A DNA stretch of 64,000 nucleotides from a candidate division FCPU426 bacterium (GTDB taxonomy: Bacteria; Oederibacteriota; Muellerivitia; Muellerivitales; Muellerivitaceae), in NCBI GenBank assembly GCA_963738405.1, contig CAVTWJ010000001.1, positions 128,001 to 192,000 on the forward strand, read 5' to 3'. The translations under genes and the position numbers were made by a program. The notes beneath the pieces are model-generated. The model was not told where the DNA came from. It did no database searches and saw only the letters and a list, made by a program, of their open reading frames with translations. Below are positions 34,261-63,939 of this stretch, piece after piece. The stretch's first letter is position 1, and every line of letters starts with the position of its first letter.

Positions 34261-34262
34261 TC

Positions 34263-46615: not shown

Positions 46616-47410
46616 TTGCCAACAAATCCATTTGATTTTAATTCCAAAGATGTGGTTGCTTTCGTTCTGATCTTGGTAAGATTGGCGGGCCTTTTTATTA
46701 CGGCACCCGTTTTTTCCAGCCGAAATATTCCTCCTCAATTGAAAGCCGCTTGGGTTTTGCTTATGACCCTTCTCGTTTTCCCTGTCGTTTCCTATCAACC
46801 CATTGCGATTCCAACCCCGGGGTTGGCTTTGGGTTTGGCGGTTGTTAAGGAGGCAGCAATAGGTATGTGTTTGGGGTTTGGGGCTTTGCTTTTATTTACT
46901 GGCATCCAAATGGCGGGCCAAATAATTGACATTCAGATGGGACTTGGAATGGTGAATATTATAGACCCCGTTACAAATGCTCAAATTTCAGTAATGGGAC
47001 AGTTTTACTTTATGATTGCCACCTTAGTATTTTTGGCAGTGGATGGCCACCATATTCTTATCAGAGCTGTGGTTGATAGTTTCTCTGTAATCCCTTTAGG
47101 GGAGGCTCATTTCACGGCAGCGCTGGGAACAGAAATGATGCATTTATTTTCTAGGGTGTTTTTTATTGCTTTTCGTGTTGGGGCTCCCGTTATAGGCGCA
47201 TTGTTTATTACAAACCTTGCTTTGGGAGTGGTGGCGAGAACTGTGCCTCAAATGAATGTTTTTATTGTTGGAATGCCTTTAAATATGGGAGTGGGTCTTT
47301 TAATCGTTGCTGTTTCAATGAGTTTCTTTGTTTATATATTGCAAGATATGTTTCAGGGGAAACATGGACTGGGGTGGGATTTAGCTATTTTGATTAAATC
47401 TTTAAAATAA
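46616..47410 (+). CDS. fliR: Flagellar export gate FliR
   Basis: AGQIIDIQMG, DGHH, RTVPQMNVF..G.P. Confidence 0.96.
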   Translation: MPTNPFDFNSKDVVAFVLILVRLAGLFITAPVFSSRNIPPQLKAAWVLLMTLLVFPVVSYQPIAIPTPGLALGLAVVKEAAIGMCLGFGALLLFTGIQMAGQIIDIQMGLGMVNIIDPVTNAQISVMGQFYFMIATLVFLAVDGHHILIRAVVDSFSVIPLGEAHFTAALGTEMMHLFSRVFFIAFRVGAPVIGALFITNLALGVVARTVPQMNVFIVGMPLNMGVGLLIVAVSMSFFVYILQDMFQGKHGLGWDLAILIKSLK

Positions 47411-47430
47411 ATACAAAAGGAATCTAGGCA

Positions 47431-48483
47431 TTGCCTGACCCATCAAAAACAGAAAAACCTACCCCACATCGAATAAAAGAGGCTAGGGAAAGGGGCCAGG
47501 TCGCTCGTTCGGTCGAAATAAATTCTGTAGTTGTTTTATTGGCTGGGTTATTGACTCTGCGATATGCCGGACCTTACATGGTGGATTCCCTCCGAGACGT
47601 AACGGTTTTTTTCTACCAAAACATGAATACGACCCTTGGGACAGAAAATATTTACACGTATGGAATTTTTTTGATGGGGAAAACTTTTCTTATTTTAGCC
47701 CCGGTTTTGGGAGTCATTTTGATGGTGGGCCTTTTGGCTAACTATCTTCAAGTAGGTGTTCTTTTTTCTTTAAAGCCAATGACCCCTAAATTCAACAACA
47801 TAAATCCAATAAATGGTTTTCAGCGATTGTTTTCGCGCAGATCCTTGGTGGAATTTATTAAATCAATATTAAAGCTTTTGATTATAGGTTGGATAGCGTT
47901 TGGTGGGGTCAAGGCGGCATTGCCGCAATTGGTACCAGCGATGGATATGGAGGGAACAGAAGCTTTGGGGTTGATTGGAACCTTGGCTATAAACATTATC
48001 AATCGAATCATTTTGGTCCTGGTAGTCTTGGCTATTTTAGATTACCTCTATCAAAAATGGGATTACGAGGATAATTTACGCATGTCAAAACAAGAAATAA
48101 GGGACGAGTTTAGGCAAGCAGAAGGCGACCCGATGATTAAGGCGAGAATCCGCCAAATTCAGAGGGAAATGACAAGAAGGCGCATGTTTGATGCGATCCC
48201 TCGAGCGGATGTGGTGATTACCAATCCCACTCACGTGGCAGTAGCTTTGGAATATAAAGAAGGAATGCAGGCACCCGTCGTTTTAGCAAAAGGCGAAAGA
48301 GTTGTTGCAGAGAGAATCAGGGATATGGCTGTTAAAAACAGGGTACCCATTGTTCAAAATCCACCTCTTGCTCGAGCTCTTTTGAAGTCCTGCCCGGTTG
48401 GAGCTCCTATATCACCTGATTTATTTGAAGCGGTTGCGGAGGTATTGGCCTTTGTTTACCGATTGAACAAACAGCACAGATAA
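47431..48483 (+). CDS. flhB: Flagellar export switch FlhB
   Basis: KTEKPT, INPING, EGDP.IK, NPTH autocleavage motif, VAEVLA. Confidence 0.97.
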   Translation: MPDPSKTEKPTPHRIKEARERGQVARSVEINSVVVLLAGLLTLRYAGPYMVDSLRDVTVFFYQNMNTTLGTENIYTYGIFLMGKTFLILAPVLGVILMVGLLANYLQVGVLFSLKPMTPKFNNINPINGFQRLFSRRSLVEFIKSILKLLIIGWIAFGGVKAALPQLVPAMDMEGTEALGLIGTLAINIINRIILVLVVLAILDYLYQKWDYEDNLRMSKQEIRDEFRQAEGDPMIKARIRQIQREMTRRRMFDAIPRADVVITNPTHVAVALEYKEGMQAPVVLAKGERVVAERIRDMAVKNRVPIVQNPPLARALLKSCPVGAPISPDLFEAVAEVLAFVYRLNKQHR

Positions 48484-48573
48484 AACCGGCAATTGGGGAA
48501 AAAGGAAGCATGACCGCAAAGCTTTTTGCGGTTAAAATATCGGTTCCTGATCACATGTGAAGTAGAGGAAAAA

Positions 48574-50649
48574 ATGGCTGAAACAACTACAATCACCAAT
48601 ATCCAAAAGAATAGCGATTTATTTATCGCCTTCGCCCTGGTTATGGTGATCTTAATGTTGTTTATTCCGCTCCCGCCTATTGTTTTGGATCTTTTGATCT
48701 CTGTCAATATCACCATGGCTTTGGTAGTTGTACTCATAACCATGTATACCCTAGAACCGCTCCAGTTTTCGATATTTCCAACCTTACTTCTCATTACTAC
48801 ATTGTTTAGGTTGGCCCTTAATGTTTCGGCAACTCGCTTGATACTGTTGCATGGAAGCGAAAGCACCAGTGCGGCTGGAAAGGTTATTGAGGCAATTGGC
48901 GCCATTGTCGTTGGTGGGAACACTTGGGTTGGGCTGGTAGTTTTCTTGATTTTAGTCATTATCCAGTTTGTTGTTATTACCAACGGTGCTCAGAGGGTGG
49001 CAGAAGTGGCGGCTCGATTTACCTTGGATGCGATGCCTGGAAAACAAATGGCCATAGATGCGGATTTAAACTCCGGTTTAATTACCGATGACCAAGCTCG
49101 AAAGCGTCGAAAAGAAGTTGAAAGGGAGGCGGATTTTTACGGTGCGATGGATGGAGCGAGTAAATTTGTACGCGGCGATGCGATAGCTGCGATTATCATC
49201 GTTATCATTAATATTCTTGGCGGATTTGCCGTTGGAGTTTTGACGGGGGGGTTGGGAATTTTGGAAGTTTTTCAACGATATACCCTACTAACCGTTGGAG
49301 ATGGTTTGGCCACACAAATTCCAGCTCTAATGTTATCGACAGCCACTGGTATTGTAGTTACGCGTGCCGCATCAGACAGTAATCTTGGAACAGATTTAGT
49401 CAAACAAATTATAGCTCAACCTCGCGCTCTTTGGATTGCATCGGGTGTCATTGCGATGATTGGAATCTACATGTTCAATATTCCATTGCTTTTTATTTCT
49501 TTTGTGACGGGGGGGGTGGCCTATTTCATTCAGCGTGGAATAACAATGGAAGACTTGGAGACGGAGAAAGCCAAGAGTCAGGCCCCTGAAAAGAAAAAAG
49601 AACCAGAAAATGTAACTTCACTTCTATCGGTTGATCCTTTAGAGGTAGAAATCGGATACAGCTTGATTCCGCTGGTGGATGAAGCCCAAGGTGGGGATTT
49701 ATTGGAAAGAATTACGGGTATTCGGAGACAAATGGCGGGAGATTTAGGATTGGTTATTCCACCCATTCGGATACGCGATAATATGCAACTTCAACCCTCA
49801 GAATATATGATCAAATTAAAGGGTGTGGAAGTGGCCCGATGGAAGATCATGCCTGGACATTTATTAGCCATGTCCACCGGTCCTGATATGGTGAAGATCC
49901 CCGGCATACCTACTAAAGAACCTACCTTTAATTTGGCAGCATTTTGGATTACCGATGAAGAGAAAGCCCAAGCCGAACAAGCTGGGTACTCGGTTGTGGA
50001 CGCTTCCACAGTGATTGCAACTCATCTTACTGAAGTGATAAGAAATCAGGCTCACGAATTCTTGACGCGCCAGAGTGTTTCGAAGCTTTTGGATCAAGTC
50101 AAAAAGGAATCTCCGGCAGTCGTGGATGAGATGATACCCAGTCAATTGTCTATAGGGGACATGCAAAAAATACTCCAAAACCTGTTAAAAGAGCATCTCC
50201 CAATTCGAGATATGGAAAGTATTCTTGAGGCGGTTGCCGATCATGTGAAGGAAACAAAAGATACTCAAATATTAACTGAATACGCCAGACGATCATTGGC
50301 AAGATCTATTACGAAGCAGCATATTTCTGCGGAAGGGAAGGTTTATGCTTTGACATTAGAACCGAAGTTTGAAAAAACCATTATGGATTCCGTTCAGGCT
50401 GCTGAATCTGGAGCTTCGGCGGCTCTTGATCCCCGTATTCTTCAAACGATGTTTAGGAGTCTTTCAACTGGAATAGAAAAAATGGCCCAACAAAATCGAC
50501 AACCTTTAGTTCTTTGTTCGGCAAATGTTCGCCCTTATTTTAAAAGAATGATTGAAAGGTTTATTCCACATTTAACCGTACTGTCCTTTAACGAATTACT
50601 TCCGCGTACCGAAATCCAATCGGTAGGACTTATCGAGGCAAATGGATGA
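48574..50649 (+). CDS. flhA: Flagellar export protein FlhA
   Basis: RVAEVAARFTLDAMPGKQMAIDADL, FYGAMDGASKFVRGDA; ATG 48574 after GAGG. Confidence 0.98.
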   Translation: MAETTTITNIQKNSDLFIAFALVMVILMLFIPLPPIVLDLLISVNITMALVVVLITMYTLEPLQFSIFPTLLLITTLFRLALNVSATRLILLHGSESTSAAGKVIEAIGAIVVGGNTWVGLVVFLILVIIQFVVITNGAQRVAEVAARFTLDAMPGKQMAIDADLNSGLITDDQARKRRKEVEREADFYGAMDGASKFVRGDAIAAIIIVIINILGGFAVGVLTGGLGILEVFQRYTLLTVGDGLATQIPALMLSTATGIVVTRAASDSNLGTDLVKQIIAQPRALWIASGVIAMIGIYMFNIPLLFISFVTGGVAYFIQRGITMEDLETEKAKSQAPEKKKEPENVTSLLSVDPLEVEIGYSLIPLVDEAQGGDLLERITGIRRQMAGDLGLVIPPIRIRDNMQLQPSEYMIKLKGVEVARWKIMPGHLLAMSTGPDMVKIPGIPTKEPTFNLAAFWITDEEKAQAEQAGYSVVDASTVIATHLTEVIRNQAHEFLTRQSVSKLLDQVKKESPAVVDEMIPSQLSIGDMQKILQNLLKEHLPIRDMESILEAVADHVKETKDTQILTEYARRSLARSITKQHISAEGKVYALTLEPKFEKTIMDSVQAAESGASAALDPRILQTMFRSLSTGIEKMAQQNRQPLVLCSANVRPYFKRMIERFIPHLTVLSFNELLPRTEIQSVGLIEANG

Positions 50650-51839
50650 GAATCAAACGGTATGAAGCTCCCACGATTCAAGAGGCTCTTATGAAAGTTA
50701 AGAAAGATTTGGGCCCTGAAGCGGTAATTCTTTACACGAAAACGTTCCGTAAGGGAGGGGTTTTGGGACTGTTTGGGAAACCGGTGGCGGAGATTACTGC
50801 GGGAGTAGAGCTGAATCTTATGGACGATATGGCTCGCCGCAAAGGATCTTCCTCGAATATTCCACCAATTTTGGAGCGGAGCGAGGTTACTTTACCACAG
50901 AATATTTTATCGCCCGCTGGACGTACGGTTGGAACGCTTGATCCTGCAAGAACAAAGGTTAAGGCTCTCCAAAGAGAATTAAACGAAATGAAAACTTCAA
51001 GCGTCGCAAGTTTAATCAAGGAAATGCAACGCCCCGAAAATGGTGCGATTTTGTCTGAAGGATTTAATAAATTAAAAAAGAAACTCGCCAAACAGGAAGT
51101 CGAAGAATTTTTGGTACAAAAAATTATTAAAGGGATGATTAATGAAAAAATAGATCCTGATCGTCCTGATGAGGTTCAATTGTGGATCAACAAACAAGTT
51201 GCGGCCTCTCTGAAAACGGCTCCTCCTATTTCCTTGGGTGGTTTTCAAAAAGTTATCGCTTTTGTTGGGCCAACCGGAGTTGGGAAAACTACCACCCTTG
51301 CAAAATTGGCAGCACGATTTAGTTTGATGGAAGGTAAAAAGGTTGCGATGGTTACGGCAGATACATACAGAATTGCCGCAACGGAACAATTAAGGACTTA
51401 TGGGCGAATCATGGGAATCCCAGTAGAGGTGGCAAATGGTTCGGACGAGATTATTTCTGTGCTTAATCGGCACAAGGGGGCAGATTTGATTTTGGTGGAT
51501 ACCGCAGGCCGTAGCCCTTCGAACGAAGAGCAATTGGAAGAGTTGAAAGAGTTTATCGCAAAAAGTCACGCAGATGAAATTCATTTAGTCTTGTCTGCCA
51601 CAACGAAATACTTAGATATGATTCGTATTATTGAACGATTTGGTATGGCTGCACCCATAAACAGGATGATATTTACTAAGTTGGATGAAACGCGTTTCTA
51701 CGGTGCGTTTTTAAATCTGATGAATAATTTCCAAATTCCACTGGCATATTATTCTACGGGTCAAAATGTTCCAGATGACTTGGAAGTGGCTGATGTCCCG
51801 TTGCTTGCGGAAAGAATCACAAAGGCTCTTTTAGGTTGA
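50646..51839 (+). CDS. flhF: SRP-type GTPase FlhF
   Basis: LGPEAVIL, GPTGVGKTTT, DTYRIAA.EQL, DTAG, TKLDE, GQNVPDD. Confidence 0.96.
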   Translation: MRIKRYEAPTIQEALMKVKKDLGPEAVILYTKTFRKGGVLGLFGKPVAEITAGVELNLMDDMARRKGSSSNIPPILERSEVTLPQNILSPAGRTVGTLDPARTKVKALQRELNEMKTSSVASLIKEMQRPENGAILSEGFNKLKKKLAKQEVEEFLVQKIIKGMINEKIDPDRPDEVQLWINKQVAASLKTAPPISLGGFQKVIAFVGPTGVGKTTTLAKLAARFSLMEGKKVAMVTADTYRIAATEQLRTYGRIMGIPVEVANGSDEIISVLNRHKGADLILVDTAGRSPSNEEQLEELKEFIAKSHADEIHLVLSATTKYLDMIRIIERFGMAAPINRMIFTKLDETRFYGAFLNLMNNFQIPLAYYSTGQNVPDDLEVADVPLLAERITKALLG

Positions 51840-51852
51840 GGAAAGGCTTTTA

Positions 51853-52758
51853 ATGCAGGATCAAGCGGAAAAGCTACGGCAATTAGTTGGAAAAATTAAT
51901 TCTCAGGAACTAACTGATTCTGTTTCTGATGTTAAGAAAGCGTGTCGAGTTGTTGCCGTTACAAGCGGAAAAGGTGGTGTCGGTAAAACTAATATTTCCG
52001 TAAACTTTGGACTGGCTTTGGCAAAAAAAGGGCGAAAAGTGTTGCTAATGGATGCTGATATGGGATTGGCAAATGTGGATGTCATGATGGGAATCATTCC
52101 CGCCAATACACTTATGAATGTTTTGAATGGCGATAAACGGCTTTCGGAAATCATAATTGAAGGGCCGCTCGGATTGAGATTGGTCGCATCAGGATCTGGT
52201 GGTGTACAAGAACTGGCAGAGTTGAACGAGGTGCAAAGAAATCGATTTCTACAGGATTTGTTTGATCTTCAAAATCAAGAAGAAGTCATACTGATTGATA
52301 CTGGCGCGGGTTTGCATCGTAATGTTTTGGCATTTGTTTTAGCGTCGGAAGAAGTGATTGTAGTTACAACCCCTGAGCCCACCGCTTTAATGGACGCTTA
52401 TGGAATGATCAAAACAATATTTCGCGAAAAAAAAGATCCAATTATCTCAATTGTTGTGAACATGGCCTCTACTCCAGCCGAGGGGGATGAGGCTGGGCGG
52501 AAATTAGTAATTCTTTCTAAAAGGTTTTTGTCGTTAGAAATTAATTATTTAGGTTCTATTCCACGGGATATGGGAATGGTAAGAGCAGTCAAAGAACAAC
52601 ATCCTATTCTTTTATCTTCTCCAATGAGTCCGGCCGCCCTTAGTTTAAGCCGAATCGCCGAGGCTTATTTTTCTGGAAAAGTTCAATCAAACGCGGGAAA
52701 TCTTAGTCAGTTTTTTAAAAAGGTTACTTTGCTTTTTGGGAGACGCGTGCAGGACTGA
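51853..52758 (+). CDS. flhG: MinD-like ATPase FlhG
   Basis: DQAEKLR, SGKGGVGKTN, DADMGLAN, DTGAG, TPEPTA..DAY. Confidence 0.95.
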   Translation: MQDQAEKLRQLVGKINSQELTDSVSDVKKACRVVAVTSGKGGVGKTNISVNFGLALAKKGRKVLLMDADMGLANVDVMMGIIPANTLMNVLNGDKRLSEIIIEGPLGLRLVASGSGGVQELAELNEVQRNRFLQDLFDLQNQEEVILIDTGAGLHRNVLAFVLASEEVIVVTTPEPTALMDAYGMIKTIFREKKDPIISIVVNMASTPAEGDEAGRKLVILSKRFLSLEINYLGSIPRDMGMVRAVKEQHPILLSSPMSPAALSLSRIAEAYFSGKVQSNAGNLSQFFKKVTLLFGRRVQD

Positions 52759-52898
52759 CCGTAAAAAAATACGAAGTTGGAGTTTTTAAAATTTTAAATT
52801 GTTATTTTTTAAGAACTTTAAGACTTTTTTTGCCTGTTTAAATGCTTTGATTTGTGAAAAGAGAAGATTTTAATAAAACGACTTATTAGGAGAAGCCG

Positions 52899-53309
52899 AT
52901 GGTAGATAACGCAAAGGGGAAAAAATATTATGAATTAACCCGAGAAAAGCCATACGGTCTTTTTCACATGATTCTTGTGGGAGGCACCGCATGCTCTGTA
53001 TTGGCATTTTTAATTGTATCTCTTGTTGGTGCTTACGAAGGCATGCCGATGGATTCTATTATATTGGCTTTTTTGACAGCTGTTTTACTCGGATTCTTAT
53101 TTGGAGGTTCCATAACATGGTTGGCTGTTCACTATCTGGGCCCCGTGATTGATAAAAATGAACCAAATAATGGAACAAATTCCGCTCAAGTATCTGTTAG
53201 TGAGGTTGAATCTTCAGAAGTCTCGCCTGAAATAACGGAACCTGTAGAGGAAAAGGGACAAACGATTGATTTTGTTTTTCCGGAGATTTCTCCCGACCAA
53301 CAAGGTTAA
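52899..53309 (+). CDS. Hypothetical two-TM membrane protein with acidic tail
   Basis: AGGAG SD, two hydrophobic helices, Glu/Ser-rich C-terminus; directly upstream of fliA. Confidence 0.75.
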   Translation: MVDNAKGKKYYELTREKPYGLFHMILVGGTACSVLAFLIVSLVGAYEGMPMDSIILAFLTAVLLGFLFGGSITWLAVHYLGPVIDKNEPNNGTNSAQVSVSEVESSEVSPEITEPVEEKGQTIDFVFPEISPDQQG

Positions 53310-53320
53310 CGTGATTTCCG

Positions 53321-54160
53321 ATGACTAAAGAAGATGATTTAAGGAGGCGTTGGGAAAAATTTCTGAAAAATAAAAAGGACATAGTCAATAGAGATTTTTT
53401 AGCCCTACACTATCTTTTTCTTGTTGATGCTGAAAATAGACGACTTCTTGCCCGTTTGCCCGCTAGGATTTATTGGGAGAAGAAAGACGATTTAGCGTCT
53501 GCGGGGGCAATTGGACTTTTGAAAGCTTTAGATCTTTTTGTTCCTCCCGTGGACAAACAAGCTTCGCCGGGAAGGGCCTTTGAGGCATATGCAAGGTATA
53601 GAATTCGCGGTCAAATGGTGGATGAATTACGGGGAATGGATTTTGCGCGGCGAAATCTACGAAAACAAGCTCGAATGATTCAGGAGGCTGAACGTAAAAT
53701 TGAATCAAAGCTTCAAAGGATTCCTAGAGCGGAGGAGACGGCAAAAGCTTTGGGGGTGAGTTTAGAAGAATTTTATGATTGGGTAGCTGAAATAAATATG
53801 TTGAATCTTTTATCCCTAGATGCGGAGAGGATCAAACCGGGGGATGGAAGTACCTGGGCAGAATCCTTAGTTGATGACAAGGCGGAGAATCCGCTTGATA
53901 AAGTCGAGATTAAGGAGAAAATTGAACAGATCAAAGAAGCCTTAAAAGATTTGGGTGATTCCGAGCGAAATGTTCTACAGCTTTATTATATGGAAACATT
54001 AACTTTTAAGGAAATAGGGAGAGTTCTCCACATCAGCGAATCTAGGGTTTGTCAAATACATCACATGGCGATTTTTCGTTTGCAAGAATTTGTCGAAGGA
54101 GGGACATATGGTCGGCTCAAAGGATCAGAACGGCTACACGACTATCACTACCGAAAATGA
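53321..54160 (+). CDS. fliA: FliA/WhiG family sigma factor (sigma28)
   Basis: DL...G.IGL, F..YA..RIRG.M.DELR..D, LYY...LT.KEIG.VL.ISESRV.QIH. Confidence 0.92.
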   Translation: MTKEDDLRRRWEKFLKNKKDIVNRDFLALHYLFLVDAENRRLLARLPARIYWEKKDDLASAGAIGLLKALDLFVPPVDKQASPGRAFEAYARYRIRGQMVDELRGMDFARRNLRKQARMIQEAERKIESKLQRIPRAEETAKALGVSLEEFYDWVAEINMLNLLSLDAERIKPGDGSTWAESLVDDKAENPLDKVEIKEKIEQIKEALKDLGDSERNVLQLYYMETLTFKEIGRVLHISESRVCQIHHMAIFRLQEFVEGGTYGRLKGSERLHDYHYRK

Positions 54161-55802
54161 TGGAGTTTATTTGACTGTTTTCCCTCCCTCGGGAAAAGGC
54201 ATAAAAGTCACGCTAGAAGATGTGAAAAAGGAGCTTTTTAAATATAAAGCTAATCCTGATAATCCGGTCATTTTGACACAGATCGTTGCACAGTCTACCG
54301 GGACTCCCCAAAAAATAATAAGTAAAAAGGCACCTTCCACACCGGGTCAGGATCAGGTTTTTGTAGAAATAAGTGACGATGAAATGTCGGCCAAATTGAC
54401 AATCGTCCCACCACAATCAGATACGGGACATTTCTCAACCATTGACGATGTTCGAGAATCTCTCAAGAGAAGAACTGTAGTTTATGGTATCGACGAAAAT
54501 CGAATGGCTGAAATTTCGGAAAAATTATCCCAAATGGCTTTGTCTAAAAACATATCCGAACCGATTGAAATGGAAGTGGCCTTTGGAACGGCTGTAACAA
54601 ATGGAGAAGACGCACGGGTTGAATATCTATATAAAGCGAAGACGGAAGAGACGGATCAACCCATTGCGGTTCCGGAAGAGACTGAAGATGGAAGAGTGGA
54701 TTATCGGGCGGTCCATAAGATCGACAACATTCTTAAGGGTACTTTACTAGCTAGAAAAATCCCTCCTTCAAAAGGTGTTCCTGGGATGACCGTTACTGGC
54801 AAAGCTATCGAGGCCAAAGACGGTCAAGATATCGAAGTGTTGGCGGGAAAGGGAGTGGTGGTTTCTCCCAATAATAAAGATGAGTGGATTGCAGATAGTG
54901 ACGGTCAGGTTATTATAAAAGACAACAAGATATCGATCATGGCATTATATGAAATTCCTGGAGATGTGAATTTATCAACCGGAAATCTTGATTTTATTGG
55001 AACAATCATTGTTCGTGGGGATGTTAAGGATGGGTTTAAGGTTTTTGCAGGTGAAGACCTGATAGTGAACGGCGTGGTTGAAGGAGCCGAATTGAAATGC
55101 GGGGGAAAGTTGACCATCGCTGGTGGAGTAAGTGGAAACGATAAAGCGAAAATTGTTTGCCAAAGTGATGGGAATATAAAATATATCCGCAACGCAATTG
55201 TGGAAATTGGCGGAAATTTGTCCACGTCACAAGCGATCATGCACAGTAAGGTTACCGTTGGTGGGAAGGTGACTGTGGCGGGCAAAAAGGGTGTAATTGT
55301 CGGGGGGCAAGTTATTGCGGGCCTTGAGGTAAACGCCGCATCCATGGGATCGAATTTTGCGACTCCGACCGAGATCATAGTTGGTGAAGCTATCGGACTC
55401 CGGGACGAGATCCAAAAGACAGATACCGAACTAAAGGCTTCCGTTGAAAATCTTGATAAAACTAAAAAGGGGATTCAGTTTCTTAAGGAACTCCAAATAA
55501 AAATGGGGGGTAATCTCCCGCCTGATAAAAAAGAATTGTTGACCAAGCTCACTCGAGCTCAATTTAAACTTATGGCTGATACAAAGACTCTCGTTGAGAA
55601 AAAACAAGAACTTGAGAAAATCGACCAGGAAGGCGCTGTTGAAAGACATCGGATGGCAAAGGTGACTTGTATGGGAATCATTCATACTGGTGTTAAGATA
55701 ACAATTAATAAGGCTTCCAGGCAGGTTTCTGAAGAATTGAAGTACTGCACGCTAACCGAGTCGGATGGCGAAGTGAAGGTAGGCCCTTTCAGGGGTAATT
55801 AA
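54108..55802 (+). CDS. fapA: DUF342/FapA family flagellar assembly protein
   Basis: GRVDYR, G.TVTG, GDVNLSTGNLDFIG, beta-helix GG repeats; ATG 54108 after AGGAGGG. Confidence 0.88.
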   Translation: MVGSKDQNGYTTITTENDGVYLTVFPPSGKGIKVTLEDVKKELFKYKANPDNPVILTQIVAQSTGTPQKIISKKAPSTPGQDQVFVEISDDEMSAKLTIVPPQSDTGHFSTIDDVRESLKRRTVVYGIDENRMAEISEKLSQMALSKNISEPIEMEVAFGTAVTNGEDARVEYLYKAKTEETDQPIAVPEETEDGRVDYRAVHKIDNILKGTLLARKIPPSKGVPGMTVTGKAIEAKDGQDIEVLAGKGVVVSPNNKDEWIADSDGQVIIKDNKISIMALYEIPGDVNLSTGNLDFIGTIIVRGDVKDGFKVFAGEDLIVNGVVEGAELKCGGKLTIAGGVSGNDKAKIVCQSDGNIKYIRNAIVEIGGNLSTSQAIMHSKVTVGGKVTVAGKKGVIVGGQVIAGLEVNAASMGSNFATPTEIIVGEAIGLRDEIQKTDTELKASVENLDKTKKGIQFLKELQIKMGGNLPPDKKELLTKLTRAQFKLMADTKTLVEKKQELEKIDQEGAVERHRMAKVTCMGIIHTGVKITINKASRQVSEELKYCTLTESDGEVKVGPFRGN

Positions 55803-55834
55803 TAGTCAATTTGAGAATTACTTAATGGTGAACT

Positions 55835-56455
55835 GTGAACGTTTTAAATGTACTTCAAATTCTTTTTGATGCGGTTTTCCTTTTTGGAATTTTATTTTTA
55901 TTTAACTTTTCAATCAGTCAAACTCGAAAAAGGAATGACGATTTGGATTTGTTAAAAACGGCTCACAATCAAGAAACTAAAGAGCAATTACAAGAATTAC
56001 TCCTTACCTTAAAACAGCTTGGAAATGAAGTGTCTGAAAACGTTCAGAAGGAAGTCCGCATAGCAGAAGAAAAAACTGATGAGATGCAGCGATTGATGCG
56101 GAAAGTACAACGTGAAATAGAAAGAACATCCCAATCGAGCCATATCCTTAAGGCTGAGAAAAACAGATTAGGCGAAAGAACTTATGCCGAAGTCCCGAAA
56201 TTAAACAAAAGCTCAACGTTTAAAAATAAAAGTCTGAAAAATAAAAAAGAAAACCTCGGCTCTCCGGGAGGGGAGCCCTCGAAAATTAATAAAACCAGTA
56301 TGCTTGGCCTTTCATCCAAAATAGTTCAGGAAGTTTATCGTTTAGCGGATGCAGAGAATGATTCGAAAATGATATGTGAGAAAACTCAGTTGAGTCTTGC
56401 TGAGATTCAACTGATTTTGAATTTAAGAGGGAATCGATTCACTACGCCGAATTAA
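55835..56455 (+). CDS. Membrane-anchored coiled-coil protein with C-terminal HTH-like domain (DUF2802/DUF6115-like)
   Basis: N-terminal TM, coiled coil, VYRLAD...I...QLS.AEIQLILNL. Confidence 0.65.
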   Translation: MNVLNVLQILFDAVFLFGILFLFNFSISQTRKRNDDLDLLKTAHNQETKEQLQELLLTLKQLGNEVSENVQKEVRIAEEKTDEMQRLMRKVQREIERTSQSSHILKAEKNRLGERTYAEVPKLNKSSTFKNKSLKNKKENLGSPGGEPSKINKTSMLGLSSKIVQEVYRLADAENDSKMICEKTQLSLAEIQLILNLRGNRFTTPN

Positions 56456-56480
56456 ACGGTTGATTTCTGGGATTTGAAAA

Positions 56481-57125
56481 ATGGATAAAATTATTCCCTC
56501 AAATCCTAAATTAGTGCCTCCTGTTTCGGGTTTAATGAACAATAGGTCTAAAGGGTTTGACGAGGGAGAAACGGCCTTAATTGAGAAAGTGTTATCAAAA
56601 GGAGTTTATTTGGCAACGTTTCAAGGCGGAAACAGTGTCAAGGTGAAGGGGCCTGTAGGGTTAGACGTTGGGGTTCCTGTAAGGGTTTTTTGTTCGAATA
56701 AAGTGAATTCAGACTATGTGATTGGAAATGCTTTAGAAAATGCCTGGTTGTTAGAAAACGAAGCCGTATTAGCTCTAACAGCAGTTTTGCCTTTGGGGTT
56801 TGGAGGCAAAGGGGCGAAAGCAAAATTAGAAGTTTATACCCCTAAAGAAAAAAGGGGGATAAACAAAAATAAACTAATTTACTTTATTATTACACTCTCC
56901 ACGGAAGGTTTTGGGGATTTACAATGGATCATACATTTATGGAGAAGAATTGCGGAGGTCCAACTTTACGGAGGGGTGGTTAAAAAAGAAGGTGAAATCC
57001 AGAAAATTATTGAAGATGTTGAGAAGTGTATTTTGAGAGCAGGTTTTACTTTGTCGGGTCCTATCATCAGAATTAAAGAACCTTTTCAGATTCCGCAAGG
57101 TTTGCGGCTTGATTGGAGGGGTTAA
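56481..57125 (+). CDS. Short protein with FliK-C (T3S4)-like C-terminal region (YlqG-like position)
   Basis: LPL...KLEVY, I.LSTEGFGDL, terminal LDWRG resemble FliK-like C-termini; directly upstream of a FlhB-C homologue. Confidence 0.5.
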   Translation: MDKIIPSNPKLVPPVSGLMNNRSKGFDEGETALIEKVLSKGVYLATFQGGNSVKVKGPVGLDVGVPVRVFCSNKVNSDYVIGNALENAWLLENEAVLALTAVLPLGFGGKGAKAKLEVYTPKEKRGINKNKLIYFIITLSTEGFGDLQWIIHLWRRIAEVQLYGGVVKKEGEIQKIIEDVEKCILRAGFTLSGPIIRIKEPFQIPQGLRLDWRG

Positions 57126-57127
57126 TT

Positions 57128-57427
57128 TTGAGCCCGGCATCTAGGAAACGAAATACTCGCAAAGCCGCTGTGGCTCTGAAATATGACCGCGAATCAATGC
57201 CCGCCCCGAGGGTTGTGGCCAAAGGAAGAGGGCTCGTTGCTGACCGCTTAATCGATTTGGCAAGGAAAAATGGTATTCCGATTGTTGAAGACAAATTGTT
57301 AGTTGATGTGTTGGATTCTTTAAACGTAAATCAGGATATTCCTGGGGAACTTTATCAGGTTATTGCTGAGATTTTGGTGGCTGTTTACCGCGCTGAATCC
57401 GCCAAAAAAGACAAGCCGAAAGTATGA
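57128..57427 (+). CDS. Stand-alone FlhB C-terminal domain homologue (FlhX/YlqH, EscU/YscU family)
   Basis: AVALKYD...APRVVAKGRG..A..I...A..NGIP, IP.ELYQVIAEIL. Confidence 0.9.
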   Translation: MSPASRKRNTRKAAVALKYDRESMPAPRVVAKGRGLVADRLIDLARKNGIPIVEDKLLVDVLDSLNVNQDIPGELYQVIAEILVAVYRAESAKKDKPKV

Positions 57428-57535: not shown

Positions 57536-59662
57536 ATGACAAAGGAAAATACCAAGTGGCGTAGCAAGTTTCTTACGTCTTATTTACTTAGGGTTGGTTT
57601 CGCTTTCGCGCTTTACATTTTATTTATCAGCGTGGTTTCTGCGCAAAACAACGAATTGATTTTTGCCCGCCCTGATAGTTTAGGGGTTGGCCCTCGAGCC
57701 ATGGGGATGGGAGGCGCTTTTGCGGCTATCGCTGATGATGCCTCCGCTGCTTATTGGAATGTTGCGGGATTATCCCAGCTATCTTCATATGAGCTCTCTC
57801 TCTCGAGCGCTCCGGTTTATTTTACTGAAAATTTAAATGGGAATCTGGCTTTTGGGTTTCCTTATTACGCTTCAATACAGTTCATTTTGCCCATTGCAAA
57901 AGAAAATACTCTAGGCATTTCTCTTTTTCGTCCCTTTCATCCTCAAATAGATTTTTTTGCGGGAAATACGACTTTAAGCTCTATTCAAAGGGGCGAGGCG
58001 AGTTATCTTTTAAATCCGAGTTTTCAGGAAAGTGAAATAGTTTTGTCTTATGCGGCCCGATTTTCTGCGATTCAGAACTTTTCTGTTGGAATCAATGTTA
58101 AGCGCGTGACTAACGACCAGTATTACATCCGTTATTTTGGAGGGGACGCTCCAACATCAATTGCTTTGGCCGATCCGACGCAGGTAGTTGGTTATGGTGT
58201 TGATATTGGGTTGCTTTTTAGAATCCCTGTATCAAAATACACGGAAGAATTCCGTTTGGGGGTTGCGTTAAATAACCTTGTGGGTCGGGTTCAATACACG
58301 AACGGCCTACAGTTTTCTGATGGAGCGGCACATGTTTCGTTTAGCGTTGGCCCCGGGTATGAAACTTCTCTTCCTCCGGAAATCATTCTTGGCGTAGCCT
58401 ATAAAAATAATTATCTCTTCAAAATCCGTAATATAACTGATTTGGATTTTGATCAGATTTCCGATCCTCGGTTCGATGATTCTTCGCTTGCTTTGGCAAA
58501 CAAATTCTTGCGTTTTGGGACGGAATTTTGGTTTTTCAAAGATGTTTTGGGCTTGCGGGCCGGTTATTCTACTCCTTTTATTAGTCCAGGTACGATCTCA
58601 TTGGGCCTGAGCGTTCGCGTTCTTAATGGGGATTTTCAATCTGATTTAGCTTATTTAATGCCAGTTGGCCCCGAGGCCGATATTCAAGCCGGGTCATCAC
58701 TCCAAACGATCGATCAAGGTGGAATAAATTATGAGCCGTTCCATATAGCCTTAGCATATAGGTTTGGGGGAGGTGAAGAATTACCGCCGCCCAAGGTTGA
58801 CGCTTATGTTCAACCGCCTTCATTTACTCCGTCGCAAGGGGAATCAACAACTTTCTATTTAGATACCACGGAAGATGTTCCGGTCCAACGCTGGAGTGTA
58901 TTGATTTATGATCAAAATAATCATCTGGTGAGAAGGTTGCAAGGACAGGGAACCCCTCCAACGAAAATAGTCTGGGGTGGCGAAGATGATTTATATCGCC
59001 CTTTGCCTGGGGGCGTTTATTCTTGGGCTTTTCAAGTGGAAGACCAACTTGACCACATTGGGTCAACGCCCGTTATGACAGTTGAATTAATTACCCCTCC
59101 GGCGCCTTTGGCGAAGGATGCATCAAAACTAATGGCCATTCGACAGCAAGAAGCGGCCCTTTTGACTCAGGAAAGGGCAAATCTCACTTCTTTGGCGCAG
59201 CAAACATTAAAGGCGCTTTTGGGCGAGAGTAATTCAAACACTTCATTGGCGGCATCCATGCCCACGCCGGTAGATAGTGCGGGTAATACCCAGTACCCGG
59301 AAACAGGGGGCGTCCCATCAATCGGATTCCCAACTCTCACTCCTGATCAGCCCTTAAACGCACATTTTGACAAGAATCCAAATGGAGATGAGATTATTGC
59401 AGTAAGTTATAAATCGCAACAAAGTTATGTCCCCTATTTATACCAAGAAGCGGCGGACGTTATTAAAACAACCGTCAATTCAGTAGGAACGGGTTTAAAA
59501 GAGATTTCGACTCGTGTATATTATGGAAAAAATGAATTGGATCTGGTGACGGCTACCCAAGCTGCCGCCAATTATGCTTCTGGTAAGATTAGTCAATTGC
59601 AACTTATGCAATTGTCAGACATCCATATCAATGGTGTGAAGGTGGGGCCGAATGGTTATTAG
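57536..59662 (+). CDS. PorV/PorQ (UPF0164)-like outer-membrane beta-barrel with FlgD-like Ig domain and unknown C-terminal domain
   Basis: Signal peptide; GVGPRAMGMGGAFAAIADDASAAYWNVAGL; G.DIGLL, LRAGY strands; WSVLIYD...VRRL.G.G.PP..IVW.G.D Ig motif; ATG 57536 after GGAG (ORF open from 57503). Confidence 0.75.
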   Translation: MTKENTKWRSKFLTSYLLRVGFAFALYILFISVVSAQNNELIFARPDSLGVGPRAMGMGGAFAAIADDASAAYWNVAGLSQLSSYELSLSSAPVYFTENLNGNLAFGFPYYASIQFILPIAKENTLGISLFRPFHPQIDFFAGNTTLSSIQRGEASYLLNPSFQESEIVLSYAARFSAIQNFSVGINVKRVTNDQYYIRYFGGDAPTSIALADPTQVVGYGVDIGLLFRIPVSKYTEEFRLGVALNNLVGRVQYTNGLQFSDGAAHVSFSVGPGYETSLPPEIILGVAYKNNYLFKIRNITDLDFDQISDPRFDDSSLALANKFLRFGTEFWFFKDVLGLRAGYSTPFISPGTISLGLSVRVLNGDFQSDLAYLMPVGPEADIQAGSSLQTIDQGGINYEPFHIALAYRFGGGEELPPPKVDAYVQPPSFTPSQGESTTFYLDTTEDVPVQRWSVLIYDQNNHLVRRLQGQGTPPTKIVWGGEDDLYRPLPGGVYSWAFQVEDQLDHIGSTPVMTVELITPPAPLAKDASKLMAIRQQEAALLTQERANLTSLAQQTLKALLGESNSNTSLAASMPTPVDSAGNTQYPETGGVPSIGFPTLTPDQPLNAHFDKNPNGDEIIAVSYKSQQSYVPYLYQEAADVIKTTVNSVGTGLKEISTRVYYGKNELDLVTATQAAANYASGKISQLQLMQLSDIHINGVKVGPNGY

Positions 59663-61220
59663 GTTTGCAACCTTATCGATTCTTATTGGGATATCCATTT
59701 TAGGGCGACCTGTCCAAGCGGCGTTTGATAAGGGGGGGGTGACAGGAGATGGGGCTCGACCGCTAGGTATGGGTGGTGCTTTTGCTAGTGTTGCGGATTC
59801 TTCCGATGCGGTTTTTTACAACCCTGCTGGTTTAGTCCAAGTATTGCGGCCAGAGATTACCGGAATGGGAGCTGTTCTTTTGAACGGTAAGGAAGATCTT
59901 TTTGATCTGACTTATGTTCAACCTTTTGCGGATCAAATGGCTTGGGCCTTATCCACTCAACAGCTTTTGTTTTCGGATGGCACAGAAAATGATCGAATTT
60001 ATATTGGATCTTTTGCGGCTCCTCTTGCAGTAGATAAATCGATTTCATTTGGTATCAGCGCCAAACTTTATGGGGTGGATTCGCCCACGCAACCGGGGTT
60101 TCAAGCCAGTGGATTTGGTTTGGATATGGGTTTTCTATATCATCTTCCCATTTATGACCCCCGATACGGAAAACAAATTAACATAGGGCTTTGCGCTCAA
60201 GATTTGGACACCTCCATCCAATGGCAAGCTGGAAACACTGATCCGGTGGCCTTGGCTGTTAAGGGGGGAGTCAGCTATGAATTTACAGATGATTTGGTTA
60301 CGGCCTGGGAATTCGAAACTATCAATGATCCCAATGTTGGCCAGCATACCCTTCTTCATGCCGGAATCGAAGGTTGGTTTTTTTCTGATCAATTAGGTTT
60401 GCGGACCGGTTATTCCGATTTCATGACATTGCCGGGCCAATTTACGGCTGGCATCAGTTACCGTTCTCATACATGGGGAATCGATTATGCTTACATTGGT
60501 CATGCGCAATATTTAGGTTCTTCCCACCGTATTTCAGCTAGTTGGCGATTTGGGGATTCGTTTTTGGGAAAGGTGAAAAGTTTTATACCCGAGGGAGTTA
60601 CTTCTTATGTCGATGGTGACATTATCACCCTTCGTTGGATCAATTCACCTTCCATTTCTCTAGCGGGTTACAATGTTTATTTTTCCAAAACCACCGGTAG
60701 TGGGTATATAAAGATAAATCAAAAGCCAATAAAAGCAAATTACTATTCCTTGCGAGGATTGGAAAAAAATACCCATTACTACTTTGTTGTAACTTCTATG
60801 ACAAATACCGTTCCCCCTGTTGAAAGCCAATACTCCCGAGAGGTTATTGCCGGAACAACATCTGCTCCTGGAGCTCCCATAGTGGTTCAAAGCGAGTTGC
60901 AAAATGAAGGGGTTATTGATATTGCACGACAAGCCGGAATGGCAGGGTTCCCAGATCCTAGTAAAAATGGTTTAAAAGGTTATAATATCTACGTTTCAGA
61001 GGTGTCTGGTGGACGTTTTGATAAGGTGAATGCCCAGCCGATAGCGAATGTGCCTACATATCTTGTCCGGAAATTGAAAGTTGGACAACGATATTTCTTT
61101 TCTTTCACATCTGTTGGGTCAGATGGAACAGAAAGTGCTAGATCTCGAGAGGTTTCTGTTGTTGCGTTGCCTTATAGTACCGTTATTCAACCAACTTCAA
61201 CGACCTCGACGTCTCATTAA
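59652..61220 (+). CDS. PorV/PorQ (UPF0164)-like outer-membrane beta-barrel with two fibronectin type III domains
   Basis: Signal peptide; GARPLGMGGAFASVADSSDAVFYNPAGL; IDYAY...LG.SHRIS..WRF barrel end; two GYN(V/I)Y...Y.F..TS...ES Fn3 motifs; 11-nt overlap with upstream gene. Confidence 0.78.
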   Translation: MVIRFATLSILIGISILGRPVQAAFDKGGVTGDGARPLGMGGAFASVADSSDAVFYNPAGLVQVLRPEITGMGAVLLNGKEDLFDLTYVQPFADQMAWALSTQQLLFSDGTENDRIYIGSFAAPLAVDKSISFGISAKLYGVDSPTQPGFQASGFGLDMGFLYHLPIYDPRYGKQINIGLCAQDLDTSIQWQAGNTDPVALAVKGGVSYEFTDDLVTAWEFETINDPNVGQHTLLHAGIEGWFFSDQLGLRTGYSDFMTLPGQFTAGISYRSHTWGIDYAYIGHAQYLGSSHRISASWRFGDSFLGKVKSFIPEGVTSYVDGDIITLRWINSPSISLAGYNVYFSKTTGSGYIKINQKPIKANYYSLRGLEKNTHYYFVVTSMTNTVPPVESQYSREVIAGTTSAPGAPIVVQSELQNEGVIDIARQAGMAGFPDPSKNGLKGYNIYVSEVSGGRFDKVNAQPIANVPTYLVRKLKVGQRYFFSFTSVGSDGTESARSREVSVVALPYSTVIQPTSTTSTSH

Positions 61221-61240: not shown

Positions 61241-62026
61241 TTGCCTAGCGGTTTATACATTGCGGCATCGGGAATGAATGCGACTTTGGCCCGTCAAGAT
61301 GTCATTTCTAATAATTTGGCCAATGCGAACACGGTCGGCTTTAAACAAAATCGATCAGTTGATATCGCATTTCCAACATATCTTATTGCCCGGCTTCATG
61401 ATCAACGTCTAAAGGTTATGGATGGAACGGCTGAATTGCGACCCTCCATTGGCGTAATGGGTGGCGGAGTGATTCCTCAAACGGTTGCGACTGACTATTC
61501 ACAAGGGGCCCATCTTGAAACTCAAAGCCCGCTGGATTTTGCGCTAAATGGTCCGGGTTTTTTTTCCGTGCTGGGGACGAATGGGAAAACATTTCTAACT
61601 CGAGATGGAAATTTTAGCTTGGATTCAAATGGTCGTCTTGTGACGAAAGATGGGTTGCCCGTGTTGGGCCACAATGGCGAAATATATATCGATGGAACCC
61701 AGGTAACAGCTGACCAAGAAGGTAATTTGACAGTCGACGGAAAAGCTTTGGATCAACTTCTGATTGTTAAAGTGAAAAACGAGAATCAACTAACTAAGGT
61801 GGGGCATTCGTTGTTTCAGGTTGAAGCCAAAAATCAAGTTGAGTTAATGCCTGAAGATGTTCAAGTTCAACAGGGCTTTTTAGAACAATCGAATGTGAAT
61901 TCAATGTCGGAAATGGTTAATATGATTGATACCTACAGATCCTATGAACTGAATTCTCGAATCATTGCTTCATATGATCATTTAATGGGAGAGGCAGCTT
62001 CGCAAATTGGGTCGCTGAAAGTTTGA
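61241..62026 (+). CDS. flgF: Flagellar basal-body rod protein FlgF
   Basis: GLYIAASGM, SNNLANANTVGFK, DFAL.G.GFF, TRDG.F, LEQSNVN...EMV.MI. Confidence 0.88.
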   Translation: MPSGLYIAASGMNATLARQDVISNNLANANTVGFKQNRSVDIAFPTYLIARLHDQRLKVMDGTAELRPSIGVMGGGVIPQTVATDYSQGAHLETQSPLDFALNGPGFFSVLGTNGKTFLTRDGNFSLDSNGRLVTKDGLPVLGHNGEIYIDGTQVTADQEGNLTVDGKALDQLLIVKVKNENQLTKVGHSLFQVEAKNQVELMPEDVQVQQGFLEQSNVNSMSEMVNMIDTYRSYELNSRIIASYDHLMGEAASQIGSLKV

Positions 62027-62148: not shown

Positions 62149-62949
62149 ATGATGCAGTCGCTTTACACGGCCGCGACAGGTATGGCCGCACAGCAGTTGA
62201 ATATCGATACGATTTCGAACAACCTCGCTAACGTCAGCACAACAGGCTTTAAAAAACAACGTGTTGATTTCCAAGATCTACTTTACATCAATCTGAAACC
62301 TTCCGGGACTCCAACTTCACCTGATACCAATACTCCGGTTGGACTGCAAATCGGCGAGGGAGTTAAGCCGGTTTCTACACAGCGCATATTCACTGAGGGC
62401 GCGATACAAAATACCAATAACCCATTGGATATTCTTATCGAAGGAAACGATAGTTTCTTTCAAGTGACCTTACCAAACGGTGAAACGGCCTATACCCGGG
62501 ACGGATCGTTCACTCAAGATGCGAACGGAAATATCGTTACCGCCGATGGATATTTTTTAAATCCGCCAACACAGCTTCCTGCAGACACATCCTCTATTCA
62601 AATTACCACCAATGGCCAGATCATGGTGCAAACAGCAAGCAGTGCCGGCCAATCAGTTCAAGTTGGGCAGTTGGAACTTACTCGGTTTGTAAATCCCGCA
62701 GGTTTGATGGCCACGGGGAACAATTTATTCCTTGCAACGGCGGCTTCGGGAGATCCAATTCAGGGTACGCCTGGATCGACGGGATTTCCTAACGTTCAGC
62801 AGGGTTCTTTGGAAGAATCAAACGTTGATGTTGTCGATGAAATGGTTAACCTCATCGTGGCTCAAAGGGCTTATGAACTTAATTCAAAAGCGGTCTCGAC
62901 CTCCGATTCCATGCTCTATGATATTACAACGATGAAGCAGTTCCCCTGA
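62149..62949 (+). CDS. flgG: Flagellar distal rod protein FlgG
   Basis: SLYTAATGM.AQQ, FQDLLY, YTRDGSF, FVNPAGL, LEESNVDVVDEMVNLI.AQRAYE.NSK. Confidence 0.96.
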   Translation: MMQSLYTAATGMAAQQLNIDTISNNLANVSTTGFKKQRVDFQDLLYINLKPSGTPTSPDTNTPVGLQIGEGVKPVSTQRIFTEGAIQNTNNPLDILIEGNDSFFQVTLPNGETAYTRDGSFTQDANGNIVTADGYFLNPPTQLPADTSSIQITTNGQIMVQTASSAGQSVQVGQLELTRFVNPAGLMATGNNLFLATAASGDPIQGTPGSTGFPNVQQGSLEESNVDVVDEMVNLIVAQRAYELNSKAVSTSDSMLYDITTMKQFP

Positions 62950-62961: not shown

Positions 62962-63939
62962 ATGAGGATTTTGGTTTTAATGGGCCTGTTTGGGTGCGGA
63001 GTTTGCCATATGCCCCTGTTATGTGCTGAAAAAACAGTAACCATTCGTCTGGTTGATCAAGCTACCGTTGCGGGACCGAATATCGTTTTGGGTGACATAG
63101 CTGTGTTGGACGGTGAGGATAAAGTTGAGGTTGATCGCTTGGACCGAATGGTAGTGGAAAGGGCCGCGCCAATGGGGCAGAAGGTATCCGTTGCCCAAAC
63201 CGCTATAAAAATAGCTCTTAGTCGAGAAGGTTATTCCCCGAATGAGGTTCAACTTGTGGGCGCTGAATCATCCCTGGTTTTGACACAGACCCAGGAAGTG
63301 ACTCCCGGCCAATTGTTAGTGGCTGCTCAATCTTTTATTCTTTCCCAGACCGGGGAAGATCCGAGAAATTTGAAAATTAAGCTTTTGGGGCCGCTAAAAA
63401 ATCTGGTGATCCCAACTGGGAATTTGGGGATTCATTATCGTCCGGCCCTTGTTGGGCAATACGAAGGCGTGCAAATATTAACTGCTGAATTGACCGTTGA
63501 TGGTCGCAGTATTCGATTGGTTCCTGTTAGGTTGGATGCTCAGATTCTTCATGCCGTTGTTCAAACCACCAGGGCCATAAGCAAAGGGGATAAATTTACG
63601 GTTGATAATGTTTCGCTAGGGACGCTTCCCACCTCGCAAATTTTAAAGGGAACCCTTCAACACCTAGATGACGTCTTAGGCCGGAGCGCGGCCTTTGATC
63701 TAAAATCTGGGACTCCGGTTCGTTTTAGCGAAATAAATGACCCTCCGGTTATACGCCACGGTAGCATTGTTCAGGCATTTGTTGAAACCGGAAATATAGA
63801 AATCGTTGTTCATGCGCGGGCCGTCGCCGATGGAAAAGCCGGTGAAGAGATCCTTGTTGAAAACACTGATTCACATAAAATCTTGAAAGCCAAGGTTTTG
63901 GATGAAAACAGTGTTTTAATTGACCCGATGAAGCCGTGA
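62962..63939 (+). CDS. flgA: Flagellar P-ring formation chaperone FlgA
   Basis: Signal peptide, I.LGDIA, SAF domain, C-terminal A..DG..GE.I.VEN..S.KIL.A.V. Confidence 0.88.
   Translation: MRILVLMGLFGCGVCHMPLLCAEKTVTIRLVDQATVAGPNIVLGDIAVLDGEDKVEVDRLDRMVVERAAPMGQKVSVAQTAIKIALSREGYSPNEVQLVGAESSLVLTQTQEVTPGQLLVAAQSFILSQTGEDPRNLKIKLLGPLKNLVIPTGNLGIHYRPALVGQYEGVQILTAELTVDGRSIRLVPVRLDAQILHAVVQTTRAISKGDKFTVDNVSLGTLPTSQILKGTLQHLDDVLGRSAAFDLKSGTPVRFSEINDPPVIRHGSIVQAFVETGNIEIVVHARAVADGKAGEEILVENTDSHKILKAKVLDENSVLIDPMKP

Follow-up and report, generated by a model that had tools for sequence, protein, structure and literature searches.

A PorV-like barrel gene pair inherited with a flagellar gene cluster without detected filament genes in FCPU426/Goldbacteria

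The window analysed here, a stretch of 64,000 nucleotides from the genome of a candidate division FCPU426 bacterium (contig CAVTWJ010000001.1), contains within its flagellar gene cluster two overlapping genes, A and B, that code for putative outer membrane barrels related to PorV, a protein of type IX secretion systems. In the comparison with other genomes of the phylum (designated by G-numbers, G000 being that of the window, with f-numbers for their families and L-numbers for loci) the pair was found to accompany a variant of the flagellum that keeps motor, rod, rings and hook and in which no filament genes were detected. This variant with its barrel pair is real and conserved, and neither the pair nor the filament-less system was found described in the literature searched, mostly without subscription journals and without the supplements of other papers. 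The pair probably belongs to a short rotating organelle at the cell surface whose use is not ordinary swimming. We give about even chances to A and B being an outer membrane collar or anchor of a filament-less, FlgK-tipped machine native to FCPU426/Goldbacteria, a reading made from the genes.

Linkage of the barrel pair to the rod and ring genes

Gene A (57536..59662, forward strand) would code for 708 amino acids (aa) from an ATG, or for 719 from an alternative GTG start upstream at 57503, and gene B (59652..61220, forward strand) for 522 aa. Both proteins have a predicted signal peptide and a 14-strand barrel of the PorV/FadL type, followed in A by an immunoglobulin-like (Ig) domain, a long helix, a linker and a lineage-specific alpha/beta C-terminal domain, and in B by two Fn3 domains. 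The genes overlap by 11 nucleotides (nt), which is typical of families f1 and f2, and both products carry the N-terminal motif G.R..GMGGAF...ADD/S.A..(W/Y)N.AGL. The description given in the initial annotation, two overlapping PorV/PorQ-like barrel genes with a common motif, agrees with the coordinates, the motif and the family matches, these last being under the cut-off. It had also stated that B ends 20 nt before flgF (61241..62026, forward strand, for a rod protein) without a terminator. The distance is right; the terminator scan of the window listed no site between B and flgF, but with 14 sites against 13.5 in shuffled sequences it says little.

We read the loci of 58 genomes, counting adjacency only where the contig allowed it. 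The order A-B was found in 55 of 56 genomes (the sole miss, G047, is a labelling error, and B is present there) and flgF was the next gene after B in 53 of 54, so the link to the flagellar cluster noticed in the window holds across the lineage. With 18 genes of this barrel family in the window's genome, one of them could by itself have come to lie next to flagellar genes by chance; the order kept in relatives shows that this is not the case. The context upstream of A varies: f1, f2 and f9 have a short flhB-like gene there, f3 has icd-pyk, f8, f11 and f13 have mutL-miaA, and f5 has cargo genes. Despite these changes the order A-B-flgF-flgG-flgA-flgH-flgI-flgJ-flgM-flgN-flgK persists, and the pair is therefore carried along with the rod/ring genes, whatever lies upstream of it. 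To judge from gene order, A and B open the rod/ring operon or sit inside it. Several families in which A seems to come first in the unit have, by eye, a sigma-70-like site just 5' of it. In the Goldbacteria-like families a conserved leader element, possibly a regulator site, follows the sigma-70-like site and precedes the start of A (L039, L040, L041, L045, L091, L092, L095, L096, L101, L102, L105-L108). The conservation of B is at the level of FlgF and FlgH, with identities to distant families of 38–43% for B, 38–44% for FlgF and 32–39% for FlgH.

As a marker of the pair we used the C-terminal domain of A, searched in 93 genomes at least 80% complete. It was present in 61, nearly always at a single locus; one further match, in G073 (E 4e-4, with an internal stop), was spurious and was removed, lowering the count from 62 to 61. 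The 32 genomes without the marker comprise 21 with no flagellar marker, seven with a conventional flagellum, two broken inside the cluster (G015, G017) and two with orphan axial genes only (G024, G007). The domain is missing from all 21 genomes in which no flagellar marker was found, although such genomes (G036, G078) hold many other barrels of the family. Among 1.84 billion representatives the domain was found in 39 proteins, 26 of them at E ≤1e-10, and by these matches it appears to be confined to the FCPU426/Goldbacteria lineage. Homologues bear the source names “candidate division FCPU426” and “Candidatus Goldbacteria”, with one labelled Spirochaetia. The pair is the sole non-canonical component that we found inherited with the machine throughout, which makes it a natural handle on the function of the machine.

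Motor and hook without filament genes

A search of the window's genome for flagellin gave nothing. Flagellin_N, which detects FliC and FlgL alike in conventional clusters, was searched in the 93 genomes, and control genomes were positive in each filament-family search. It was found in 13 genomes, of which 12 have a conventional cluster. The thirteenth (G047) has only a fragment at a contig end, the C-terminal part of FlgL in frame behind an epimerase (L124, C141:142-2412), which we counted separately and which is probably an assembly join or contamination. No match was obtained in 55 of the 61 pair-carrying genomes; five have one solely in a second, conventional cluster, and one is the fragment just described. 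Among the 40 pair-carrying genomes at least 90% complete, 36 have none and the other four are two-system genomes. FliD was above the cut-off in the same 12 of 93 genomes with a conventional cluster (weak FliD_C matches below the cut-off appeared in ten f1 genomes, plus a second one in G054), and FliW, searched in the 60 genomes with a completeness of 90% or more, was found in 10, all with a conventional cluster. Flagellin_C and FliS were absent from the five genomes tested, four of them in 1–5 contigs and including a single-contig genome, and the phylum's own conventional FliC and FlgL profiles gave nothing in the six frames of the window's genome (best E 3 and 5.8). There is no flgL, fliC or fliD among the genes downstream of flgA, through flgE. 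From all these searches the filament genes are very probably truly absent; a flagellin too divergent for the profiles could escape. The FliC, FliD, FliS and FlgL columns are empty in the Goldbacteria row of Table S1 of PMC13277936. The available part of that source gives for FCPU426 a flagellar loss rate near 35% and does not otherwise discuss the group, and it reports flagellin to be absent from ~2–5% of flagellated genomes, among the most faithfully kept flagellar genes. UBA9089 and Cloacimonadota are phyla with much flagellar gene loss in that source.

The other parts of a flagellum were found. The upstream part of the same cluster (33817..57427, forward strand) has open frames for flgBC, fliEFGHIJ, motAB, fliL, fliM, fliY/N, fliOPQR, flhBAFG, fliA, fapA and the short flhB-like gene, with fliE, fliPQR and flhAFG named from the sequence alone. 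The sigma-28 gene fliA (53321..54160, forward strand; above the TIGR02479 cut-off) is retained together with flgM despite no flagellin gene being detected. After flgF come flgG for the distal rod (62149..62949, forward strand) and flgA for the P-ring chaperone (62962..63939, forward strand, 325 aa), and past the window end flgH, flgI, flgJ, flgM, flgN, flgK (785 aa), fliK (1048 aa), flgD and flgE (678 aa). In the window's genome MotA, MotB, FliG, FliM, FliN, FliF, FliI, FlgH, FlgI, FlgE, FlgD and FliK were above their Pfam cut-offs, and the transmembrane Asp of MotB and the FlhB cleavage motif are present; by these signs the retained stators, C-ring, export gate, rings, hook and FliA/FlgM look functional. 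Like a canonical swimming flagellum, the system has stator, C-ring, export gate, rod, L/P rings and hook, but flagellin, FlgL, the FliD cap and the FliS chaperone were not detected. Of the four pair-lineage genomes searched for chemotaxis genes three have them, whereas in G035 the machine is present and neither CheW nor a chemoreceptor was found.

The outer axial proteins are enlarged. FlgK measures 697–821 aa in 27 pair-lineage genomes versus 463–471 aa in nine conventional clusters of the same phylum, FliK 743–1079 aa (11 loci) versus ~454–492 aa (two conventional genes assigned by position), and FlgE 496–873 aa (15 loci) versus 407 aa. The hook ruler scales at roughly 0.17–0.2 nm per residue, and by this analogy the predicted hook would be ~110–180 nm long, far short of a propeller. 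The FlgK of the lineage aligns end to end with conventional FlgK (probability 100; TIGR02492) and has an insert of ~240 residues that matches the outer domains of FliD (probability 98.4, E 4e-15) but has no match to the phylum's FliC, FlgL or FlgE. In the pair-lineage loci read, flgL never follows flgK. The insert matches Flagellin_IN (PF07196) in 11 of 23 members, and modules of this type are common to many axial proteins, so that the likeness is no proof of a cap function. A FlgK-FliD chimera was considered and kept as a possibility only: the insert is a general module of the Flagellin_IN type, also seen in other FlgK/FlgE clusters, and has no FliD match by sequence in the PDB. Searched in other lineages, it returned only the query.

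Extra copies of axial genes lie outside the cluster, flgE in G000, G002, G003 and G007 and flgK in G014, G024 and G091, several of them beside cargo-like genes, as might be expected of exposed, variable surface parts. The second flgE of the window's genome (G000:C23:27974-29980, L167) codes for 668 aa, with 47% identity to the one in the cluster. In G002, G007 and G015 the extra flgE has cargo-like genes and a barrel gene behind it, and G015 has two flgE in tandem at a contig end. Orphan flgK genes accompanied by flgD were found at L159 (G024:C20), L160 (G014:C7) and L161 (G091:C26), with cargo-like genes interleaved in G014 and G024; in G014 the cluster flgK was matched in separate pieces and the orphan one whole. 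In G001:C7 (L130) flgE is in four pieces, which may be assembly errors or decay. Family f5 has three fliL in tandem (G034 and G041; loci L139, L140 and L166, including G057) and the longest hook proteins (742–873 aa).

A sigma-28-type site was counted by eye, with no shuffle control, 5' of flgM in ~30 of 47 pair-lineage loci. In the window's genome exact sites followed by a gene occur solely in front of flgM-flgN-flgK and of flgD-flgE; at one mismatch or fewer the lineage-type pattern gave 36 sites, again without a shuffle control. The canonical sigma-28 pattern was discarded, its 578 matches being noise.

Conventional flagellar clusters, with the order flgK-flgL-fliW-csrA-fliC, exist in the same phylum. 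The pair precedes flgF in none of the 11 that we examined, including five in genomes that also carry a pair-linked cluster. These five genomes, from three families, have the filament-less machine beside a conventional flagellum without the pair, a coexistence which suggests that the two do different jobs.

A flagellar system without flagellin is retained by Buchnera aphidicola, which, according to PMC8109811, has kept basal body, export gate, hook genes and FlgK and has lost fliC, motA and motB. The likeness lies in the parts kept while flagellin was lost. However, Buchnera is a reduced endosymbiont without motA/motB, whereas here stators, FliL, FlhFG, FliA/FlgM and usually chemotaxis genes are retained in genomes of 1.6–5 Mb, FlgK and FliK are enlarged and the barrel pair has been added. 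Filament-less Buchnera has lost the motor too; that a deep lineage, known from environmental genomes, has no filament and yet retains motor, hook and late regulation, often with chemotaxis, implies a non-swimming use of the flagellar motor. Calling FCPU426/Goldbacteria motile on the basis of their flagellar genes would be an unsafe annotation. As to earlier descriptions, in the available part of PMC7031533 a figure legend gives flagellar genes as missing in sibling clades, implying their presence in Goldbacteria, and type IX secretion is not mentioned apart from a reference; the available part of PMC10434106 has nothing on flagella.

Relationship of A and B to type IX secretion

The NCBIfam family PorV_fam (NF033709) matched A with E 2.7e-24 (~86–88 bits) and B with E 4e-17 (~63 bits). 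These E-values are highly significant and both scores are below the cut-off of 90 bits; as far as the profiles tell, A and B are relatives at the edge of the PorV/PorQ family. With the PorV equivalog NF033710 the scores were 30.8 bits for A and 14 bits for B, far below the cut-off of 250 bits. In Pfam, B has fn3 (E 1.9e-8) and A a weak FlgD_ig match (E 0.017, below the cut-off). PF03349 (FadL/TodX) matched neither protein at E 0.05, although some homologues bear a precomputed PF03349 label, and the FlgO, FlgP and FlgT families were absent from the Pfam and NCBIfam matches of both.

AlphaFold2 models were built on alignments of 35–36 orthologues, with a mean predicted local distance difference test (pLDDT) of 77 and a predicted template modelling score (pTM) of 0.55, and have in each protein 14 barrel strands and an N-terminal plug. 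In A the plugged barrel would comprise residues 37–414 (57644..58777; this and the following features on the forward strand), and PorV (6h3i_F) was its first structural match (Z 29.4, root mean square deviation 3.4 over 290 residues), against Z 26.9 for the FadL family. The Ig domain (residues 415–520, 58778..59095) is of the fold class of type IX C-terminal signal domains and matched the C-terminal region of PorU with Z 13.1; its match to the profile of the genome's own cargo tails is weak (E 0.0097, with orthologues down to 3e-5). There follow a predicted helix of 34 residues (529–562, 59120..59221), a disordered linker and the C-terminal alpha/beta domain (residues 590–708, 59303..59659) that served as orthology marker, for which there was no convincing Pfam family, no PDB sequence match under E 0.15 and no usable Atlas match. 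In the model of B the barrel spans residues ~24–302 and the Fn3 domains ~310–403 and ~419–505. The two Fn3 domains of B and the Ig and additional domain of A that the initial annotation had proposed are thus borne out by the models, its FlgD-like label for the Ig domain having the weak Pfam match given above. An ordinary FadL fold, which it had put forward as the contrary outcome, is disfavoured for A; for B PorV (Z 29.3) and a FadL homologue (Z 28.9) are tied by fold, and the sequence profiles point to PorV, which ranked first for both proteins by NCBIfam and Foldseek.

The resemblance to PorV (PDB 6h3i_F, 8gl6_F) consists of the plugged 14-strand barrel, the N-terminal motif and the best structural match, as well as the presence elsewhere in the genome of an SprA-like gene and of numerous proteins that bear a C-terminal Ig signal. 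The differences are the scores below the family cut-off, 220–290 extra C-terminal residues, the flagellar operon and the lack of an adjoining cargo gene. As an even number of strands puts both ends of a barrel on the periplasmic side, we infer that the C-terminal tails of the modelled A and B (Ig, helix, Fn3) face the periplasm. The predicted outer loops of B contain conserved residues.

The window's genome has 18 genes (21 matches) of the PorV-type barrel family and an SprA-like gene of 1,968 aa (G000:C20:75216-81122). SprA-like frames of 1,851–2,178 aa were found in all five genomes searched, their pieces matching TIGR04189 (best E 6e-33), each below the cut-off. The GldM profile matched none of the five, but gave no match in control genomes either. 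Approximately 70 proteins of the window's genome (72 at the last iteration) share a C-terminal Ig signal. By these sequence features a type IX-like export route is likely in this genome, and the SprA-like gene, the ~70 cargo-like proteins and the 18 PorV-family genes together point to a type IX-like system outside Bacteroidota. A cargo-like gene lies within 3 kb of 10 of the 17 barrel paralogues examined and none within 3 kb of A or B. Just past flgE (G000:C1:205872-209482; families f1 and f2) there are a cargo-like gene and two barrel-only genes of the PorV family, and cargo and barrel genes also come after flgK in G035 and G039, with cargo sequences that differ. Within the window, 16038-20384 codes for a secreted protein of 1,448 aa with the C-terminal Ig signal of the lineage and a weak match to DPBB (Pfam). 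A Thr/Pro-rich cargo-like gene (G000:C15:4122-6587, L144) has a sigma-28-type site with one mismatch just 5' of its likely start; we considered it as a part of the machine and rejected it, as it is not tied to the machine and its homologues are patchy.

Proposed role and competing explanations

In the arrangement to which we give even chances, the axial structure would end at a long hook with a FlgK tip, and the extra outer domains of FlgK may replace the missing junction and cap. The barrels of A and B would sit in the outer membrane beside the L-ring, from where their tails (Ig, Fn3 and helical) could extend to the P-ring or the cell wall, and would steady the bushing while the short appendage is in contact with a surface or pulls on it. 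The organelle would then serve surface contact (attachment, sensing or surface movement) and not free swimming. The initial annotation had offered an outer membrane collar or a type IX-like shuttle; both stay in play, with the collar somewhat ahead. Its analogy with the Vibrio H-ring (FlgO, FlgP, FlgT) and the Campylobacter basal disk (FlgP) fits in part, the likeness being that of the proposed role only, i.e., lineage-specific outer membrane accessories with the L/P ring. The H-ring and the basal disk are made of lipoproteins or periplasmic proteins and brace filament-bearing swimming motors of high torque, while A and B are predicted to be integral barrels in a system where no filament gene was found. 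The H-ring and basal disk components are listed as outer-ring proteins in a table of PMC13277936.

Several observations weigh against the collar. The FlgI tree (51 rows, one partial locus containing N left out, and with a long-branch warning within the conventional side) puts all pair-linked systems on one branch, 40 rows against 11 conventional ones, with support 100/99; therefore the presence of the pair and the absence of the filament are a single inherited state and not many independent cases. Independent losses within the lineage are weak evidence: G015 and G017 are contig breaks, G024 retains an orphan flgK and flgD, and G007 (80% complete) an orphan flgE. Relatives with the pair apart from flagellar genes, which the initial annotation would have counted against its proposal, amount to one of 54 genomes, namely G035, a single contig that holds the pair ~260 kb from flgF with riboflavin genes following. 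The genome has many barrels of this kind that end in C-terminal tails, and these serve loci other than the flagellar one. The topology and contacts of A and B depend on models of moderate confidence. Finally, a large FlgK also occurs in bacteria that have a filament, e.g., the 673-residue chain 4ut1_A. Despite the single lineage two points retain their value: the adjacency was maintained through repeated rearrangement, and both machines are kept in five genomes.

The main competitor, though unlikely, is that A and B are type IX-like carriers reserved for this machine. With their outer loops they would receive a secreted protein from the SprA-like translocon and keep it next to the motor for the FlgK-tipped hook to bind or move, and a type IX-secreted adhesin or fibre would replace the filament. 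PorV is the nearest profile and structure for both proteins, the genome has the SprA-like gene and the many Ig-signal proteins, the outer-loop residues of B are conserved, and cargo genes adjoin flgE or flgK in several families and surround orphan copies of flgK and flgE. According to PMC10994853, PorV docks on SprA and binds the C-terminal domains of cargo by its extracellular loops. However, no conserved cargo was found with the machine, the neighbours of flgE and flgK differing in sequence. The cargo with the near-match sigma-28 site has close homologues only patchily in f1 (including G007), and with this query none was found in G035, G038, G039, G034 or G041. Several of the conserved loop residues of B look family-wide.

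Somewhat less probable is that the pair are ordinary members of the large barrel family of the lineage, fixed once at the head of the rod/ring operon and merely co-transcribed. The gene order of operons can persist without physical contact; we are dealing with one lineage only, the window's genome has 18 family members, and in G035 the pair is unlinked. Against this, the adjacency has outlasted at least four changes of upstream context and a divergence to ~30–40% identity, and the pair is missing from all 21 genomes without flagellar markers.

We consider it improbable that protein export or surface sensing is the main task of the machine and that the pair relays a signal through the outer membrane, with outer loops that sense and tails that contact stators or a kinase, with no bracing. 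In favour are the retention of FliA/FlgM, the machine of G035 that lacks CheW and chemoreceptors, and the basal bodies that Buchnera retains without flagellin, for which a secretion role is discussed in PMC8109811. MotA, MotB, FliL and the C-ring are nevertheless retained, unlike in Buchnera, chemotaxis genes are present in three of the four genomes of the pair lineage that were tested, the loci read show no kinase gene in linkage with the pair, and the only exact sigma-28-type sites with a gene behind precede axial operons and not an effector. That A and B have nothing to do with the flagellum and take up hydrophobic molecules as FadL-type channels is highly improbable: the tied fold of B and the PF03349 label on some homologues are outweighed by the first rank of PorV for both proteins, clearer in A, and FadL proteins are not known to have C-terminal Ig/Fn3 tails or a constant position ahead of flgF.

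The pair would also offer a way of anchoring a motor by integral barrels and might connect the flagellum physically with type IX-like secretion. A wider proposal, which we advance tentatively and as an outside chance, is that the flagellum of this lineage has turned into a new kind of organelle, in which a complete and often chemotaxis-linked rotary motor drives nothing but a long FlgK-tipped hook, joined through PorV-derived barrels to type IX-like secretion, with secreted adhesins in place of the filament. If true, it would be a flagellar-motor counterpart of the gliding of Bacteroidota, kept beside an ordinary flagellum in five genomes of three families for a different job.

As a minor observation on the window itself, between 12000 and 62000 the G+C content drops to 42–47% over the flagellar region compared with ~52% genome-wide; the order of the cluster is still shared with relatives.

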